Source of the DNA: Patescibacteria group bacterium UBA5147
GTDB taxonomy: Bacteria; Patescibacteriota; Saccharimonadia; UBA4664
Length of the DNA: 64,000 nucleotides
Assembly: GCA_002415345.1 (NCBI GenBank)
Contig: DHXV01000001.1
Coordinates: forward strand, 484,111-548,110
Direction of reading: 5' to 3'
Shown: piece after piece, positions 2,698 to 59,010 of the stretch
Position numbering within the stretch: the stretch's first letter is position 1
Layout: every line of letters begins with the position of its first letter
Notes under the pieces: model-generated
What the model was told of the DNA's origin: nothing
Seen by the model: the letters and a program-made list of their open reading frames with translations, nothing else
Databases searched by the model: none
Made by a program: the position numbers and the translations under genes

Positions 2698-3336
2698 ATG
2701 AACTTAGATCCGTTATCCCTTGGAGCAGTTTTTTTTGCGCTTGTCGTGGGTTTGGTCCTGCATGAATTCATGCACGCCTATGTCGGCTATCGCCTAGGGG
2801 ACGACACCGCCCACGCCCAAGGGCGCATTACGCTGAATCCGATGGCCCACATCGACCCGTTTACGACATTGATGTTGCCGTTCTTCCTGCTTCTGGCGGG
2901 CCTACCTGTGTTTGCGGCCGCCAAACCCGTACCATTCAATCCGTGGGCGCTCAGAGGCGGGAAGTGGGGAGCAGCAGCCGTTGCGGCGGCCGGCCCGCTG
3001 ACTAACCTGAGCATCGCAATCTTCTGCGGTCTTTGGCTCCACCTATTGCCCACATCGGCCCTGGCCTTTACGATTCTGGAGTCAATGGTACTGGTCAACG
3101 TCGGTCTGTTCGTGTTTAACTCTATTCCGCTGCCCCCGCTTGACGGTTCCCGGGTCTTATACGCGGTCGTGCCGGAATCCGCGAGGGAAGTGATGGACCG
3201 GATTGAGCATGCCGGGCTAATCGTAATTTTCGGCTTCGTAGCCATTATGTGGTACACCCCGCTTGGCGCCATGCTTGGCGGCCTGATCCGAGGAATCACC
3301 GCATTCCTGTTGCCCGCTGGCACGCTTGGGATATAA
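2698..3336 (+). CDS. Site-2 protease family (M50) zinc metalloprotease
   Basis: HEFMH zinc motif in a TM helix and a downstream LDG motif. Start refined to the ATG 7 nt after a TACAAT -10 box (leaderless pattern). Confidence 0.75.
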   Translation: MNLDPLSLGAVFFALVVGLVLHEFMHAYVGYRLGDDTAHAQGRITLNPMAHIDPFTTLMLPFFLLLAGLPVFAAAKPVPFNPWALRGGKWGAAAVAAAGPLTNLSIAIFCGLWLHLLPTSALAFTILESMVLVNVGLFVFNSIPLPPLDGSRVLYAVVPESAREVMDRIEHAGLIVIFGFVAIMWYTPLGAMLGGLIRGITAFLLPAGTLGI

Positions 3337-3604
3337 TAAAGGCAGCTCTGCGGTACTGGAATCTGGCTAATCATTTTTCTCTGTACGATTACCAACGGGA
3401 GTCCAAGATTGTTCTGGCCCGTGGGCTTAGTAACTGAGGACACCCACCTGCTTATAGCAGGGAAAAGTTGGACTGTCGGGACCGTATTGCGGAGTGTCAC
3501 TTATCTAAGATATGAAAAGTCCCGGAATCTCCATTTGGAGGTTCCGGGACTTTGATTTCGGGTTATAATGGTTCTCTAACTTGGATGAAGCCGAGTGGCC
3601 ATAG

Positions 3605-4489: not shown

Positions 4490-4565
4490 CGGGGTGTGGC
4501 GCAGTTGGTAGCGCGTACGGCTGGGGGCCGTGAGGTCGCAGGTTCAAGTCCTGTCACCCCGACCA
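4490..4565 (+). tRNA. tRNA-Pro (anticodon GGG)
   Basis: Cloverleaf built by hand. The 7-bp acceptor CGGGGTG/CACCCCG, D-arm GCGC-AGTTGGTA-GCGC, anticodon loop CTGGGGG, T-arm GCAGG-TTCAAGT-CCTGT and 3' CCA are encoded. Confidence 0.88.
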
Positions 4566-6044: not shown

Positions 6045-6413
6045 AGTCAGACCAGAAGATGATCGCGCTTGCCGCAAGGCAAGTGAGGAAAGTCCGGACA
6101 GCATAGAGCAGGACGATTGCTAACGGCAACCGGGGGCGACCCTAGGGAAAGTGCCACAGAAACGAGACCGCCTTCAGCAATGGAGGTAAGGGTGAAACGA
6201 GTGCGGTAAGAGCGCACAGCCAAGCCGGGTGACCGGTGAGGGAGGTAAACCCCGTTCGCTGCAAGGCTGCTCCATCACGCCGCAAGGTGGGCTGCTCGCC
6301 CGATGAAGCGTATACGCCGCTTGAGGTCGCTGGCAACAGCGACCCTAGACAGATGATCATCCCGTGCCGGCCTTGCGCCGGCCCGACAGAATCCGGCTTA
6401 CTCCTGGTCTGAC
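6045..6413 (+). ncRNA. rnpB: RNase P RNA (bacterial type A)
   Basis: P1 stem GTCAGACCAG...CTGGTCTGAC, the universally conserved P4 strands GAGGAAAGTCCGGAC and ACAGAATCCGGCTTA, and a CATAAT -10 box about 7 nt upstream. The antisense ORF 6142..6471 is spurious. Confidence 0.8.
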
Positions 6414-6463
6414 ACGTTTTTATTTCGCTTATCATGTTAGAATGAGAGCAATTATCAAAGCTT

Positions 6464-9060: not shown

Positions 9061-9230
9061 TGTTCGCGTCCGCCTGTTGCTCGCCCCGCCGTTAGCCCGC
9101 CTAGAGCGTGGCTTTTTTGTTTGGGTATTTTCATTTAAACGGGAAATATTTTTGGTCGCTCTGATGTTTTTTACAGTCCTTCACGGCTGGAACGGTGTCC
9201 GAGCGTCCGGGAGGGGACGGTCAATTATCC

Positions 9231-9288
9231 AATAGCGGTAAAATACCGCTATTTTAAGCACTTTCAATAGCGGTATTTTACCGCTATT
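9231..9288. promoter_or_regulatory. Paired palindromic operator sites overlapping the padR promoter (likely autoregulation)
   Basis: AATAGCGGTA-aaa-TACCGCTATT at 9231-9253 and AATAGCGGTA-ttt-TACCGCTATT at 9266-9288. A TATTAT -10 box at 9285-9290 sits right before ATG 9298. Confidence 0.6.
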
Positions 9289-9297
9289 ATGGAAAGC

Positions 9298-19154: not shown

Positions 19155-19532
19155 GGGGCTGATCAGCTTCGACGTTGGGAACTTTACAAGTCATGTGCGC
19201 AGGTCGCAGGTACGCGTTACCATCCAAAAGTTACCTTAACTGGCAACATTTTAAGTCGGGTGAAGGCTGCTTTTGCAGTACCTTCATTCGCTCCCGTTTA
19301 CGCTTAATCACGTAAACTATCGGCACCAGACACCTCATATGGGTTCGCCGGTATCAAATTATGAGGTTGCTCTTTGCAGCGTGTCTCCGCTGCTTAGCTA
19401 AGATCAGAGGCCGCTCCCGCCGTCAGTTTGTCTGAGAAGATGACTTCGGGCTAAGATTGAAATCAGACTAAACCTGTAGTGCACTGGCGAGTAACTCGAC
19501 GGACTGGGGTGCAATTCCCCACAGCTCCACCA
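19155..19532 (+). ncRNA. ssrA: tmRNA (SsrA); tag ORF about 19266..19307 encoding AAFAVPSFAPVYA*
   Basis: 5' GGGGCTGATCAGCTTCGACG matches the tmRNA 5' consensus. 3' end TGGGG-TGCAATT-CCCCA-CAGCTCCACCA is a T-arm plus acceptor plus CCA. The G3:U acceptor pair is the Ala identity element. Confidence 0.85.
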
Positions 19533-45953: not shown

Positions 45954-46029
45954 CGGGGTGTGGCGCAGTTGGTAGCGTGCTGTGTTCGGAACGCAGAGGT
46001 CGCAGGTTCAAGTCCTGTCACCCCGACCA
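45954..46029 (+). tRNA. tRNA-Pro (anticodon CGG)
   Basis: Same acceptor and T-arms as the GGG isoacceptor. Anticodon loop TTCGGAA. CCA encoded. Confidence 0.88.
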
Positions 46030-52110: not shown

Positions 52111-52401
52111 GGTGGTGGCTGGTCCTGGAGGTTCGTTAGGGGGTTTGGGTTGTTCTTCTAAGGGGGAATGGGTTTTTATTGTCTGGTGTGGGCCTCATCT
52201 ATTACGATGGGGTTGTGAAATCGGGTGGCTGGGCGCGCGAGTTGATGTGGTCGGCTGGCTCTGGGTGTCTGCATCTAAAGGGGAGTGTAGTCCTTTAAAT
52301 GTTCCAAGTAAACATTTTCGTTTACTTACGTAGTAGGCTTTTAAATGACAGTTTTATGGCTTCGTGGAGGCATAATAATTGATAAATTTGACTAATGCAT
52401 T

Positions 52402-52423
52402 TAGTAAACAAAAATGTTTACTA
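52402..52423. promoter_or_regulatory. Perfect 9-bp inverted repeat (candidate operator) in the 610-bp arsR-trpS intergenic region
   Basis: TAGTAAACA-aaaa-TGTTTACTA. Confidence 0.35.
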
Positions 52424-52723
52424 CCTAGTTTTAAACAACTAACCTGTTCCTTATTTAGTGGGTACATGAGGGCTACCTAAACTAGCAGATCACGTGTCAG
52501 CAAAGGAAGATGCCGCTCTATAAGCGAGCATAGGCCATTAATCGACGGAAAAAACAACTGGAGACGGTAACAATATAAGCTAAGTGTCAAATGGAAGGCA
52601 CCTAAGCTTAAGGGAAAGTTCAAAACCTCCTAACAATCATCTAAAGCCCCATATGCTACACTGAACACAAGAACTAAGCAGCAAAATTACTGCTAAAATA
52701 AACACCATGAAGAAAGGTCTGCA

Positions 52724-53716: not shown

Positions 53717-53737
53717 AAGCTCCTGAAACTGTGATGA

Positions 53738-53758
53738 AACCGCCTTCGGGCGGTTTTT
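53738..53758 (+). terminator. Intrinsic terminator after trpS
   Basis: AAACCGCCTTCGGGCGGTTTTT. Confidence 0.8.
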
Positions 53759-53973
53759 AGTTATCGGCTGGCTCAGGCAATAATTGACTTATATCAATAC
53801 CATCGTATAACCGAGCATATTGTAGCTTTTACAACGATAAACTTTGTGCATAACCGTTGATTTTATCACAACACCACGTCAATGTGAGCTGGTCGATGAT
53901 AGGGCAGTAGTACTCACATAATACCTTTGTAAAGGCAATAACAGCAATATCACAATCAGTTAACATAAGGGTA

Positions 53974-54002
53974 TTGACATATCAAAGCGCTTGTGCTAAA
54001 TT
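53974..54002 (+). promoter_or_regulatory. Sigma70-type promoter with no ORF for about 500 nt downstream
   Basis: TTGACA, a 17-nt spacer, TAAATT. Confidence 0.5.
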
Positions 54003-54008
54003 ATAGAC

Positions 54009-54523
54009 AGTTCACACAGACCGAAGTCCATTCACAACCCGACCACCGATTGACACCCCATAAAGCCGACAAGGTTAGACGGTAGGGCAAATCCCGGTTA
54101 GAAGTACCCCCTTACTATCTAACCTGGGTTCGCCCTACGGTCACCAGGAGCTCCAAGTAAGGTCCAAACTTGCTTGCCACGCCTGCTCCGCCATGAAGTT
54201 TCTGGAAGGCACTCGGCTACGACTTATGTCGTGGTCGGTTGCCTTCCAGAAATACGATTCTGGTAGGGAATGTCACATCAACTAAGAGCCTCAGGCTCAA
54301 TTCACCGAGCACAAGCCAACCTACGCCAGTCGCACCAAGCACCGGCCAAACCAAGGCCAAGCTCACACTCCCATCATATCTCTTACCTCTGGTAGGAAAT
54401 ATATACGGGGCGACAAGCGCCAATTTACATACATTGGGCGGGTTTGTTCGCCCCGTAACTCTTTGGAATTATTCCGTAGCCGCCACCGGCCGTCGCGAGA
54501 CGCCCCGCAGGCGGCTTTTTAAA
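54009..54523 (+). ncRNA. Candidate roughly 0.5-kb structured noncoding RNA or long leader upstream of the pheST operon (unclassified)
   Basis: Bounded by the promoter above and an intrinsic terminator at 54481-54523. Contains several long hairpins (for example ACGGGGCGACAA...TTGTTCGCCCCGT). Only short low-complexity ORFs overlap it. Confidence 0.3.
54481..54523 (+). terminator. Intrinsic terminator before the pheST operon
   Basis: GCCGCC...GGCGGC followed by TTTTT. Confidence 0.55.
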
Positions 54524-54589
54524 TTCTCCCGTTTGCCTGATATGTCGTATGAGTGGCATAATGGTGACAAGTAAGCGTGAGAAGTTTAA

Positions 54590-54964
54590 GTGACGACCAA
54601 GCGATATATTATAGCGCTGAGTGTGTGGGCCTCCGGTACGGGAGTGGCGCTTATTGCGTCGCTAATTTTTACCACTCCCGTGGCGATTGGGCCGGTGGGA
54701 GTGACGATTTGGTTCGTCGTCCTGTTAACTGAGGCTGCCGCGGCCGCTACCTTGGCATTATATGGCATCAAGACCTACCTGCACCTTCACGCCACGGAGG
54801 CGCTACGTCTGCGGTATTCATGGCGCCAGGGCTGGCTGATCGGCGGCTGGGCGGCCGGTCTGCTGGCGCTCAATTCGTTGCAGCAGCTTGGCATAAAAGA
54901 CGCTATCCTGCTAGGATTACTATTATCGATTGTTGAGGTGTATGTGAGGCTGCGATGGCCATGA
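54590..54964 (+). CDS. Small membrane protein (124 aa, 4 TM) translationally coupled to pheS
   Basis: GTG start. CATAAT -10 box about 30 nt upstream. Overlaps the pheS start by 10 nt. Confidence 0.45.
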   Translation: MTTKRYIIALSVWASGTGVALIASLIFTTPVAIGPVGVTIWFVVLLTEAAAAATLALYGIKTYLHLHATEALRLRYSWRQGWLIGGWAAGLLALNSLQQLGIKDAILLGLLLSIVEVYVRLRWP

Positions 54965-56130: not shown

Positions 56131-59010
56131 ATGAGGGTTTCCACGTCTTGGATTAAAGAATGGCTATGTCGCACAATGTCTGATAAAGATATTGTTCAGG
56201 CAATGGAGCAGGCCGGTATCGAAGTTGAACAATATATTGCGTCAACGCAGCTAGACAAAAAAGTTGTTGTAGGGCTGGTTAAAAAAGTTATTCAACATCC
56301 CGGAGCGGATAGGCTGCATATCGTTGACGTCACGACCGGCGAGACTGAACTATCGATAGTCTGCGGTGCGCCGAATGTTCGAGCAGGTTTGAAAGTGGCG
56401 GTCGCCCAGGTTGGGTCCACTCTTCCGGACGGTACGGTAATTAAAAAGTCCAAACTGAGAGGCGAGGTGAGTGAGGGGATGCTTTGCAGCGCCAGCGAGC
56501 TGGGATTGGGCAACGATCACGACGGCTTGATTGAGCTCGACGAGGAAGCGGGACTCGGGACATCATTGTGCGACATGTACGAAAACCACGGCATCGTGGA
56601 CGTGAAGACGGCTGCCAACCGGTCTGATTTGCAGTCGGTTGTCGGTTTGAGCCGCGAAGTCGCGGCAATCGCCAATATCGATCTAAAGGATATGGTGGAA
56701 GCGGCAGAATCTAAAGGCAGTGGCCCGGCCGTCGAGATTGAGGCCTCCCCCTCTTTGGTCAGCCAGTTGGTGTTGGCAGAGTTTAAGCTGGGGGCGTCCG
56801 GTAAGATTGACCCCAAGTTGCTACAACTTATGGCCGAGCGTTTGCGGGCTAGCGGGATACGTCCGATTTCCCCTGTCGTTGACGTGACGAATTACGTCAT
56901 GCTGGAGTACGGCCAGCCATTGCACGCTTATGATGCGGATAAGGTTACTTTGCCGCTGGGCTCAAGGCTCGCCAAGGCCGGCGAAACCCTGGTGACACTT
57001 GATGGCGTAAAGTGTGTCTTAACCGTCGATGATCTGGTAATAACCGATAAGACCGGCGTAATCGGCCTGGCGGGAGTCATGGGCGGCGCCCAAACCGAAA
57101 TTACGGCCGGCACGAACCGGATATATCTGGAAGCGGCAACTTTTGACGGCGGTCGAATAAGGAAGACCGCTAAACGGTTCGGGCTCAGAAGCGAGGCCAG
57201 CGCCAGGTTTGAACGCGGGCTTCCGGTGCAGTTGGCTCCGCTGGGCTTGGCTCGGGCGGCTGAGCTGTTGAACCGTGCGGCCGGGGCCGAACTCCAGGGC
57301 GGCGTTACTGATGTGCTGAGGATTTGGCCGTGGACGCAACGAATCGGCTTGAAGATACCGGTACTCAATCAGCTGTTGGGCTACGAGCTGACCGCCAAAG
57401 AAGCCTGCCAGGCTCTGTCCCGGTTTGGCATTTCGGCAGTACCCTTTGACATCGCCCGTGAGGCGCGGAGCCACTTGGGAAAGCCCTACGTCTGGGGCGC
57501 ATCATTTAAGAAGAACGGCACAAACGACTTTGATTGCAGTTATTTTACCGACTACCTCTATTCTCTTATCGGCCTGCGTATCGGTTATACTTCGTTGGCT
57601 CAATTCGAAATTGGAACGCCGGTTGAGGTGGATGATCTGAAGCCCGGTGATATTTTGTTCTACAATGGTCATCACGACCATGTATCCAAAGATTATGGCT
57701 TGTCAGAGGTACAAAACGGCGATCAGCACCACTCGATCGAGGGTTATTACTTCCTGTGGAGCGACGCCGACAACAAGTACGTCAGGGTGGAAAGCAAGCT
57801 CGGCCAACATGTCGGGCATAACGGTTTGTACGTGGGCGACGGACGCGTGGTGCATGCCGTGAAAATGGAGGCTGACGGCGAGACATGGCGGGAGCGCGAG
57901 GCAACCGGTGTCGTTGAAGAAGACGTTGAAACCTTCACGAAAAATGCCGGCTTCCTAGGAGCCCGCCGCTTTGATGACAATCTTGATACATATGTCTCAG
58001 TCGCCGCAGTTCCCTGGTGGCGGACCGATCTGAAGCTGGCCGTGGACTTGGTAGAGGAGATTGTCCGGGTCCTTGGGTATGACCGGGTGCCATCAACGAT
58101 CCCGGTTTGGCGTCCTACTACCCTGAAGTTTGACAAGACCCACCGACTCAACAGCCGTGTTAAGAATCTGCTCAGCGGCGCCGGATTGTTTGAAATTATG
58201 ACATATTCGTTCGTGGGCGAAGACCAGCTGGCAGCGGTTGGTTTGAAGCCCGAAAATCACTTGAAGCTGCAGAACCCGCTGTCGAGCGAGCAGGCGTTCT
58301 TGCGCACTTCGTTGCTGCCGAGTCACCTGCAGGTATTGGTCCGCAATCGCACCTATGCCAAAGCCATTGGCTTTTACGAATTGAGCAAGGTGTTTGTTCC
58401 GGTCGAGGGCGACGGACAACCCGACGAGCCCCTACGGCTGGCGATCTTGGTCGCCCGCCCCCAAGACTCGTACCGTCATCTCAAAGGCCTGCTGGACGCA
58501 CTGAATTTGGAATTTAACGTAGCATTTGCGCTCACCCCCGTTGACGAACCCAATGCTTTTGCCCCCGGGCGTGTCGCTCAAATCAGCTTGGCAAAGAAGG
58601 TCATCGGCACCGTCGGGCAGCTTAATCCGGCCCTTCTGAGAGCCAACAAAATAGGCGGCGAAGCCGCCTATTTGGAACTCGATATCGAGCCGATTCTGGC
58701 GGCGGCTGCCCCTAAGAAGTTCGCCGGCCTCAACCGCTTCCCCGGTACGAGCCGTGACATTTCTTTTGTTGCCGGCAGCGATGTCAGCTGGTCGGAGGTA
58801 TTGGCAGCGCTCAAAGGTTTGCATCATGCAACCGTCACTTACGTGGGTGAATATGCCGGAGCAAACGTGCCCGTTGGAAATCGTAGCCTGAGCTTGCGTC
58901 TGACTCTGAGCTATCCCGACCGTACGCCAACCGAGGAAGAGGCCGGGCGGATGGAAGCTCAAGCCTGGTCCGTGTTGGAACGAAAATTCGGTATCAAGCC
59001 TAACCTGTGA
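56131..59010 (+). CDS. pheT: Phenylalanine--tRNA ligase beta subunit carrying an NlpC/P60-like domain insertion (about 57451-57975) inside the B5 region
   Basis: N-terminal MRVSTSWIKEWL, tRNA-binding OB (EGMLCSASELGL), B5 halves (SRFGISAVPFD ... AAVPWWRTDLKLAVDLVEEIVRVLGYDRVP), and a C-terminal FDX-ACB. The insert has GKPYVWGA...FDCSYF...PGDILFY...HVGHNGLYVGDGRVVHA. Confidence 0.85.
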   Translation: MRVSTSWIKEWLCRTMSDKDIVQAMEQAGIEVEQYIASTQLDKKVVVGLVKKVIQHPGADRLHIVDVTTGETELSIVCGAPNVRAGLKVAVAQVGSTLPDGTVIKKSKLRGEVSEGMLCSASELGLGNDHDGLIELDEEAGLGTSLCDMYENHGIVDVKTAANRSDLQSVVGLSREVAAIANIDLKDMVEAAESKGSGPAVEIEASPSLVSQLVLAEFKLGASGKIDPKLLQLMAERLRASGIRPISPVVDVTNYVMLEYGQPLHAYDADKVTLPLGSRLAKAGETLVTLDGVKCVLTVDDLVITDKTGVIGLAGVMGGAQTEITAGTNRIYLEAATFDGGRIRKTAKRFGLRSEASARFERGLPVQLAPLGLARAAELLNRAAGAELQGGVTDVLRIWPWTQRIGLKIPVLNQLLGYELTAKEACQALSRFGISAVPFDIAREARSHLGKPYVWGASFKKNGTNDFDCSYFTDYLYSLIGLRIGYTSLAQFEIGTPVEVDDLKPGDILFYNGHHDHVSKDYGLSEVQNGDQHHSIEGYYFLWSDADNKYVRVESKLGQHVGHNGLYVGDGRVVHAVKMEADGETWREREATGVVEEDVETFTKNAGFLGARRFDDNLDTYVSVAAVPWWRTDLKLAVDLVEEIVRVLGYDRVPSTIPVWRPTTLKFDKTHRLNSRVKNLLSGAGLFEIMTYSFVGEDQLAAVGLKPENHLKLQNPLSSEQAFLRTSLLPSHLQVLVRNRTYAKAIGFYELSKVFVPVEGDGQPDEPLRLAILVARPQDSYRHLKGLLDALNLEFNVAFALTPVDEPNAFAPGRVAQISLAKKVIGTVGQLNPALLRANKIGGEAAYLELDIEPILAAAAPKKFAGLNRFPGTSRDISFVAGSDVSWSEVLAALKGLHHATVTYVGEYAGANVPVGNRSLSLRLTLSYPDRTPTEEEAGRMEAQAWSVLERKFGIKPNL

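Follow-up and report, generated by a model that had tools for sequence, protein, structure and literature searches.

What occupies the unannotated stretch of about 0.9 kb that follows the trpS gene and precedes the small membrane gene and pheST operon of Patescibacteria group bacterium UBA5147 (contig DHXV01000001.1)? The question arose from a preliminary description of 64,000 nucleotides (nt) of this genome (this whole stretch is called the window below, and coordinates are window positions), which had noted there an interval poor in open reading frames (ORFs), at 53760-54590. Three options had been proposed for it, namely a long regulatory leader, a novel large non-coding RNA (ncRNA) or a decayed gene, to be told apart by a covariance-model scan of Rfam, a search for covariation in aligned orthologous regions and a check of frame conservation. 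The analysis reported here finds an RNA gene of about 510 nt at 54009-54520 (+) in the gap between trpS and pheS, and favours the second option on the strength of covariation; a leader is disfavoured by the separate promoter of the downstream operon and by genes that intervene in some genomes, and a decayed gene by the lack of any coding signal. Our reading, to which we give a probability of roughly 0.8, is that this structured ncRNA stands alone, acts in trans and belongs to a new family, the newness being that of an RNA family or class.

Conservation, fold and coding potential of the trpS-pheS gap

A search with PheS yielded 21 loci from metagenome-assembled genomes of Saccharimonadia/Patescibacteria, 18 of which contain an element of ~0.5-0.65 kb that is homologous to the region by blastn and nhmmer (E down to 1e-128). 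A further match, in L021, was partial at first but turned out on inspection to be a full-length copy. Five more true loci with the same neighbours were obtained from a metagenome scan for the 26-nt pattern of highest conservation, and another seven from contigs fetched via homologues of the adjacent membrane protein; another metagenome match (L026) lies inside a coding region and was discarded as a chance hit. The element is thus carried by 32 loci in total, a few of them nearly identical, in a single copy per locus, with a length of 423-605 nt and in the same place of the gene order trpS – RNA – small membrane gene – pheST, while PheS identity among these loci falls to 57%. As far as sampled, the family appears restricted to one Saccharimonadia clade. 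Viral contigs gave no match to the RNA, and a phage origin was rejected on this ground.

Folded as RNA, the segment 54008-54525 has a minimum free energy (MFE) of -206 kcal/mol, versus -145 +/- 6 kcal/mol for shuffled sequences (z = -9.7 on the + strand and -5.1 on the - strand), and the multiple long hairpins mentioned in the preliminary description are indeed found. Covariation was assessed on 19 full-length sequences, and single domains on alignments of 23-25 sequences that include divergent loci. RNAalifold proposed 80 consensus pairs for the 19 full-length sequences, with 96.8% of cells paired versus 85.9% in shuffles. Compensatory changes affect 41 of the 80 pairs, compared with 24.6 +/- 2.5 pairs changed on both sides in shuffled alignments (0 of 500 reach 41), and only 10-18 pairs are changed on both sides after a shift of the 3' partners by 1-3 columns. 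Aligning the orthologous regions has therefore recovered the same element in 31 other loci together with compensatory substitutions that exceed the controls, both overall and for each of the hairpins H1, H2 and H3 taken separately. As for the strand, ~160 of the 1490 paired cells are G-U pairs, which would read as A-C mismatches on the other strand, and the covariance model of H1 scores 78.9 bits on the + strand versus 50.6 bits on the - strand. That this is a real conserved structured RNA is, in our view, close to certain. On this comparative evidence, its predicted architecture is one of at least seven conserved helices, H1, P2/P2a, H2, P3, P5, H3 and a terminator hairpin with a GNRA cap, between which lie variable unstructured stretches.

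Conservation of the region tracks base pairing, not codons. Divergence is flat by codon position (0.269/0.264/0.273), and the lengths of insertions and deletions, sorted by their remainder after division by three, number 97/195/168, i.e., 97 multiples of three versus 363 that are not. The earlier statement that the region is ORF-poor and holds no credible coding sequence needs qualification, since mechanical ORFs of 41-111 amino acids (aa) do exist in the window copy, among them one of 111 aa at 54239-54574 (+) and one of 68 aa on the - strand; what stands is that none is conserved, as no frame stays open across the homologues and the longest open frame shifts in frame and place from one to the next. 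One could still argue for a protein-coding gene, either degraded or unrecognised, or for a small-peptide gene, from these ORFs and from public annotation, in which the membrane gene is once extended into the region and a 70-aa ORF is called in another instance. The absence of triplet periodicity and of a shared open frame leaves this explanation a negligible probability, and the RNA, judged by its pattern of change, does not encode a protein.

Public gene callers leave the ~0.9-kb stretch empty apart from L035, where a 197-aa "extended" membrane protein and a 70-aa minus-strand ORF are called over the RNA (positions 2785-3594 of that locus). Both calls are probably annotation artefacts due to the unrecognised RNA gene.

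Promoter, terminator and independence from trpS and pheS

Upstream of the RNA, a promoter scan recovered the TTGACA-17-TAAATT promoter proposed in the preliminary description and extended it by a TG element. This sigma-70-type promoter (53974-54002, +) consists of a -35 box TTGACA (53974-53979), a 17-nt spacer and an extended -10 of the form TGc-TAAATT, with TG at 53994-53995 and the hexamer at 53997-54002, and it matches the consensus at 10 of 12 positions in addition to the TG. Across the 19 full-length sequences, TTGAC and CTTGTGCTAA show little or no variation, and the succession of TTGACA/T, a spacer of 17 or 18 nt, TG and TAnnnT is present in 32 of 32 loci. The GC content is 0.39 over 53725-54024 and rises to 0.51-0.55 over 54025-54549, in agreement with the contrast drawn earlier between an AT-rich promoter region and a GC-rich interval.

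At the other end, an intrinsic terminator on the same strand as the promoter spans 54479-54520 (+), i.e., it lies ~510 nt past the promoter and close to the GC-rich hairpin with five T residues that had been placed at 54481-54523. Its outer stem, GCCGCC (54479-54484) paired with GGCGGC (54510-54515), is followed by TTTTT (54516-54520) and encloses an inner stem of 4 base pairs (54491-54494/54499-54502) capped by a GNRA-type loop, GCGA, so that the predicted fold is a bipartite hairpin. With a nested hairpin in place of a plain loop, the terminator goes undetected in a simple scan. The sequence of the outer stem differs between genomes, and the inner stem covaries in three of four pairs and mostly carries a GNGA/GNAA cap. 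A terminator hairpin with a U-run is found in nearly all homologues, being atypical in L027 and L028.

Several conserved motifs further upstream suggest that transcription of the RNA is regulated. Alignment of the 32 upstream regions revealed TTTGTGCATAA (53843-53853) followed by an inverted repeat, CGTTG-N9-CAACA (53855-53873); the inverted repeat is kept even in the most divergent loci, at a variable distance from the -35 box. Together, these two elements (53843-53873, +) are candidate regulator-binding sites for the RNA promoter. A further palindromic motif, ATACCTTTGTAAAGGCAAT (53921-53939, +), is of the CCTTTGTAAAGG type, lies upstream of the -35 box and is partly conserved as GSCT-N-AGSC in most main-clade loci. 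The pattern YGTTG-N9-CAACA occurs four times in the window versus 0.25 expected; a regulon defined by this palindrome was considered and rejected, the other three sites (6756, 25818 and 28014) lying inside ORFs. There is also a weaker second promoter-like site, TTGACT-16-TATAAC (53786-53815), ~190 nt upstream of the main promoter and conserved only in part of the clade (e.g., L002, L012 and L027), which could be the source of a longer transcript isoform.

The RNA thus has its own conserved promoter and intrinsic terminator, and its neighbours are not constant companions. An opposite-strand gene for an Orn/DAP-decarboxylase separates trpS from the RNA in six loci (L003, L005, L006, L033, L034 and L037), and an ORF occupies this position in L027. 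On the other side, a 395-aa opposite-strand gene in L010 and other ORFs in L027 lie between the RNA and the membrane gene-pheST operon. The RNA is intact in every locus with intervening genes and hence moves as a unit of its own, a point in favour of action in trans. The downstream operon has, moreover, its own putative promoter and 5' untranslated region (54533-54589, +), comprising TTGCCT-18-TGgCATAAT and the conserved motif UAAGCGUGAG, which are not part of the RNA; a GTGcGATAAT-type extended -10 and TAAGCGTGAG directly follow the RNA terminator in ~85% of 30 loci. With a promoter after the terminator and genes in between in L010 and L027, the RNA and pheS do not appear to form one continuous transcription unit. 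In some genomes, the extended -10 of the operon promoter abuts the U-run of the RNA terminator.

Could the RNA nonetheless be a cis-acting leader or attenuator of the membrane gene-pheST operon, T-box-like or sensing a transfer RNA (tRNA), an amino acid or a protein, with its terminator controlling read-through? Its position directly upstream of an aminoacyl-tRNA synthetase operon, which in 29 of 32 loci begins 60-110 nt beyond the terminator, would fit, as would a synteny kept down to 57% PheS identity, and T-box leaders (RF00230) likewise consist of long hairpins followed by an intrinsic terminator upstream of such operons. However, this RNA lacks every defining T-box element and is about twice as long. 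RF00230 matched neither the region nor the L006 copy at E <= 10; the hallmark GGGTGGNACCRCG is absent from 53760-54590 with up to two mismatches allowed, as is the pattern of the antiterminator (conserved …GGGUGGNACCGCG…); these results uphold the earlier view that the region is not a T-box. Conservation is lacking in the terminator stem and in the sequence 5' of it, and no conserved antiterminator pairing was seen. Nor is the Phe specifier UUC conserved in any loop, the sole internal candidate in H1 varying between UUC, UUU, UCC and CUC across homologues. Added to the conserved promoter between terminator and operon, and to the genes that part this RNA from pheS in two genomes, these observations make a leader very improbable. 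From its sequence context, the RNA is not expected to be tied in cis to either pheS or trpS, and we consider an independent trans-acting gene very likely.

Architecture of the RNA from 5' to 3'

All parts of the RNA described here lie on the + strand. It would begin with a single-stranded, G-poor leader (54009-54077), whose predicted 5' end, A54009, was assigned because of the spacing from the -10 box and a conserved ACAGU. The leader opens with AGUUCGUUGAAAGUUyAGUUC and contains AGUUC/AGUCC/GACC repeats, to which several genomes add as many as about eight more units; in the 32 leaders together, AGUUC occurs 48 times versus 2 expected, in variable copy number. The 3' part of the leader (~54048-54059) is proposed to be the 5' strand of a long-range helix, P1.

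The leader is followed by H1 (54078-54142), a 65-nt hairpin with a run of five C residues at 54107-54111. In the alignment of 25 sequences, H1 has 26 pairs, 10 of them with compensatory changes; its lower stem covaries freely, and its distal stem and apical loop (AUCCCCCUUA) are nearly invariant (GGUUAGArGUAyCCCCCUUAyUnUCUAACC), the C-rich 7-nt loop UCCCCCU being invariant in all 25 sequences. In the window, one copy of the RNA was found both by a profile search and by a covariance search run with the H1 model and no filter. A second candidate at 9228-9291, which scores 22 bits (E about 0.004) with the H1 model on both strands, was rejected: an AT-rich palindromic hairpin of ~64 nt, it probably represents a bidirectional terminator or a long hairpin without relation to the RNA.

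Beyond H1, helix P2 (54148-54152/54184-54188) encloses P2a (54154-54161/54169-54176), the two together covering 54148-54188; 13 of their 13 pairs show compensatory changes and the P2a loop carries GGUCCAAAC. The long hairpin H2 (54201-54250), formed by UCUGGAAGGCAcuCGGCUACGAC and GUCGUGGUCGguUGCCUUCCAGA, has 20 pairs in the 19-sequence consensus, 12 of them compensatory and 97.9% paired; with divergent loci included (25 sequences), 15 of 19 pairs are compensatory. The next segment (54251-54279) contains the P3 region, a small hairpin of variable sequence that follows H2 in most homologues, and a purine-rich element, GGUAGGGAAUGUCACAUC (54262-54279), which is proposed to supply the 3' strand of P1. 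Duplexes between leader and purine-rich element are on average more stable for cognate (-12.8 kcal/mol) than for non-cognate combinations (-11.3 kcal/mol; p = 0.0065), and matched changes include CUUCC:GGAAG, CUUUUC:GGAAAG, CUUCU:AGAAG and CUUCUUGU:ACAGGAAG. Pairing of the CU-rich end of the leader with the purine-rich element after P3 is thereby plausible, if tentative.

A poorly alignable C/A-rich linker (54280-54375), variable in length and composition, has as its counterpart in other clades a hairpin (P4) and an A-rich insert. P5 (54376-54402), formed by AUAUCUCUUACC and GGUAGGAAAUAU, is a local hairpin in the window copy and encloses an A-rich insert of 45-71 nt in other clades; an anchor-based duplex analysis found the P5 duplex, with matched changes, in about 26 of 32 sequences. 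H3 (54404-54457), delimited by UACGGGGCGA and UCGCCCCGUA, comprises an inner stem (54415-54421/~54437-54443) and a conserved CAAUUUACA loop region; 8 of its 17 pairs have compensatory changes in 23 sequences. The conserved 3' tail GUAACUCuuuGGAAUUAUU (54455-54473), predicted to be single-stranded, leads to the terminator; within it, CCCGTAACTC is invariant in 19 sequences and weaker in the five most divergent loci. Scans for covariation of single and of stacked pairs, made for pseudoknots and long-range pairs, returned only local helices and an ambiguous similarity between strands of H1 and P5. A switch between H1 and downstream GGUAGG motifs was also considered and rejected, as these motifs lose complementarity to the 3' strand of H1 across homologues.

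Possible modes of action and relation to known RNAs

At the DNA level, conservation reaches 76.7% in H1 and 74.6% in H3, versus 67.3% in pheS. The retention of ~0.5 kb of non-coding sequence, with H1 and H3 constrained beyond the essential gene of a synthetase, implies that the function is important. In the distal stem of H1, paired positions are invariant even where a change could be tolerated without loss of pairing; this suggests that a partner recognises the sequence and that the role is not a structural one alone. A sequence-invariant helix and loop combined with multivalent repeats would favour a protein-binding scaffold or sponge, a tentative proposal to which we give somewhat less than even odds. 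Acting in trans, the RNA would then contribute to a ribonucleoprotein as its scaffold or binding platform: a partner might recognise the invariant distal stem of H1 and its UCCCCCU loop by sequence, the variable AGUYC repeats of the leader might serve as multivalent protein-binding sites, and the pyrimidine-rich end of the leader would probably pair with the purine-rich element after P3 (P1), closing a four-helix junction.

Several points weigh against a trans-acting RNA of this kind. The start site, the existence of a discrete transcript and its abundance are predictions from the DNA; the tight synteny with the membrane gene and pheS, which follow the RNA without an intervening gene in 29 of 32 loci, the terminator bordering on the promoter that comes next, would still allow regulation at the locus itself; and the 64-kb window contains no target complementary to the conserved loop or tail. 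The adjacent membrane protein has no similarity to known RNA-binding membrane proteins. Furthermore, the statistics of P1 are modest, no pseudoknot emerged from the covariation scans, and all sequences belong to a single clade (PheS identity of at least 57%) and stem from metagenome-assembled genomes; as the sequences are related, the covariation counts are not independent events.

C-rich-loop small RNAs of Gram-positive bacteria (RsaE/RoxS) pair with G-rich ribosome-binding sites of their targets, and the RNA described here could likewise be a trans-acting base-pairing regulator, whose C-rich H1 loop, and possibly CU-rich leader, would pair with G-rich ribosome-binding sites of messenger RNAs. 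The invariance of the apical loop in 25 sequences, the stand-alone promoter and terminator, and the conserved single-stranded 3' tail next to the terminator are all compatible with such a role. The H1 loop (AUC-CCCCC-UUA) presumably resembles the 3' end of 16S ribosomal RNA (AUCACCUCCUUA), and P1 a duplex of Shine-Dalgarno and anti-Shine-Dalgarno sequences. However, TAAGGGGG-type complements number 3 in the window versus 2.1 expected, one of the three being the locus itself, and no extended complement to the H1 loop or the tail was found elsewhere in the window. Pairing seeds do not need an invariant H1 stem either, and a multi-helix body of 0.5 kb far exceeds the needs of a seed carrier, so that we regard a base-pairing regulator as unlikely.

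The other partner that the locus brings to mind is the product of the adjacent gene (54590-54964, +), a 124-aa membrane protein with four confident helices in its predicted structure (predicted local distance difference test, pLDDT, of 94). The ole gene frequently adjoins the gene of OapA, the partner of OLE RNA with four transmembrane segments and a CNNM-like fold (PMC11332333), and by analogy the RNA might be a subunit of a membrane-associated particle with this four-helix protein. In 29 of 32 loci the gene adjoins the RNA, and in the others it is no more than 1.2 kb away; the protein has 97 homologues, all "hypothetical", all at least 48% identical and all confined to the same clade; its invariant motifs are PxGVTxWF and the Arg/aromatic motifs RLRYSWRQ and EVYVRxRWP. 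Yet the stop of the gene overlaps the start of pheS (54955), which implies translational coupling to pheS, not to the RNA. The protein belongs to no Pfam family, and a fold search of the PDB returned no significant match, CNNM/CorB-like folds included (best E = 0.5). Adjacency may also merely reflect conserved gene order in small genomes, and the RNA does not match the OLE model. An OLE-OapA-like membrane particle is accordingly judged very unlikely. A broader idea, equally drawn by analogy, is that of a new large ornate RNA class specific to the Candidate Phyla Radiation (CPR), working as a molecular machine and not as a regulator, be it in a particle with the co-conserved four-helix protein, functionally analogous to OLE-OapA, or in a self-assembling RNA-only complex of the ROOL, GOLLD and OLE kind; we think this decidedly unlikely, and if true it would imply an essential housekeeping role in minimal, epibiotic cells.

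With regard to known families, the scan of Rfam 15 (4227 models, at gathering score and at E <= 10) assigned neither the window copy nor the homologues to a family. In the window, only RNase P RNA, transfer-messenger RNA (tmRNA) and two tRNAs passed the gathering score, all outside the region; at E <= 10, the region gave scattered chance matches only (terminators, models of microRNAs and long non-coding RNAs). Twelve homologous loci yielded only tRNAs, and the L006 copy gave nothing consistent at E <= 10. The recovery of RNase P RNA, tmRNA and tRNAs means that existing models detect the standard housekeeping RNAs of this genome. A full-text literature search brought up no report of an RNA of this kind from Saccharibacteria or Patescibacteria.

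OLE RNA (RF01071) is among the closest known parallels, being a lineage-restricted, multi-helix bacterial ncRNA of ~0.5-0.6 kb, with highly conserved nucleotides amid variable parts and the gene of a small four-helix membrane protein next to it (PMC11332333; PMC9723947). The present RNA differs in having no RF01071 match (E <= 10), in its own promoter and terminator and in its occurrence in Patescibacteria, OLE being found in Firmicutes; no similarity between the neighbouring protein, which is coupled to pheS, and CNNM-like folds could be detected. ROOL, GOLLD and raiA-motif RNAs resemble it in size class, in strong covariation and in having been found by comparative genomics of intergenic regions; it matches none of them in Rfam, is not phage-associated, with no hit in viral contigs, and keeps a stable chromosomal place between housekeeping genes. 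GOLLD, ROOL and OLE are reported to assemble as RNA-only homo-oligomers (PMC12286853).

Among regulatory and housekeeping RNAs, those of the CsrB/RsmZ type are multivalent, sequester proteins and repeat a GGA motif, and 6S is an abundant housekeeping RNA. Like the RNA at hand, both are encoded by free-standing genes that have a strong, conserved promoter and end in a terminator, and Csr/Rsm RNAs additionally present a short motif in variable copy number in an unstructured part, GGA there and AGUYC here. Here, however, the repeats lie in a single-stranded leader and not in hairpin loops, the motif is a different one, and nothing in Csr/Rsm RNAs corresponds to the large, structured and conserved core. 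6S RNA measures about 180-200 nt, and its 5' and 3' ends pair in a long helix with a large central bubble; at 423-605 nt, with a single-stranded 5' end, a 3' terminator and separate hairpins, the present RNA has neither closing stem nor central bubble, and no 6S model matched the window at gathering score or the region at E <= 10.

Bacterial ncRNAs that exceed ~400 nt and have a conserved, complex fold are rare; the known classes make up no more than a handful, and none of them is known to have been described for Saccharibacteria or Patescibacteria. Those studied so far are ribozymes, ribonucleoprotein machines or unexpected RNA-only assemblies. The proposed family would place a new RNA of the OLE/ROOL/GOLLD size class in a huge, mostly uncultured radiation with tiny genomes. 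It would also account for a recurrent unannotated gap of 0.9 kb, at times mis-annotated as protein, and offers a defined target for metatranscriptomics, structure probing or cryo-electron microscopy, and partner pull-downs.

A few further features of the window were noted in passing. The RNase P RNA is of class A (264 bits, 6047-6416), the tmRNA (90 bits) lies at 19155-19532, and the two tRNAs are at 4490-4562 and 45954-46026. Upstream of trpS, ~400 bp of AT-rich sequence (52300-52720, GC content 0.30-0.44) are likewise devoid of a credible ORF. Finally, residues 450-518 of PheT (56131-59010), between its B3_4 and B5 domains, form an NlpC/P60 domain of the peptidoglycan-hydrolase type (PF00877, E = 4e-12); this insert is absent in L033, L035 and L037, whose PheT is shorter (771-787 aa), and present in L031, L032, L034 and L036.

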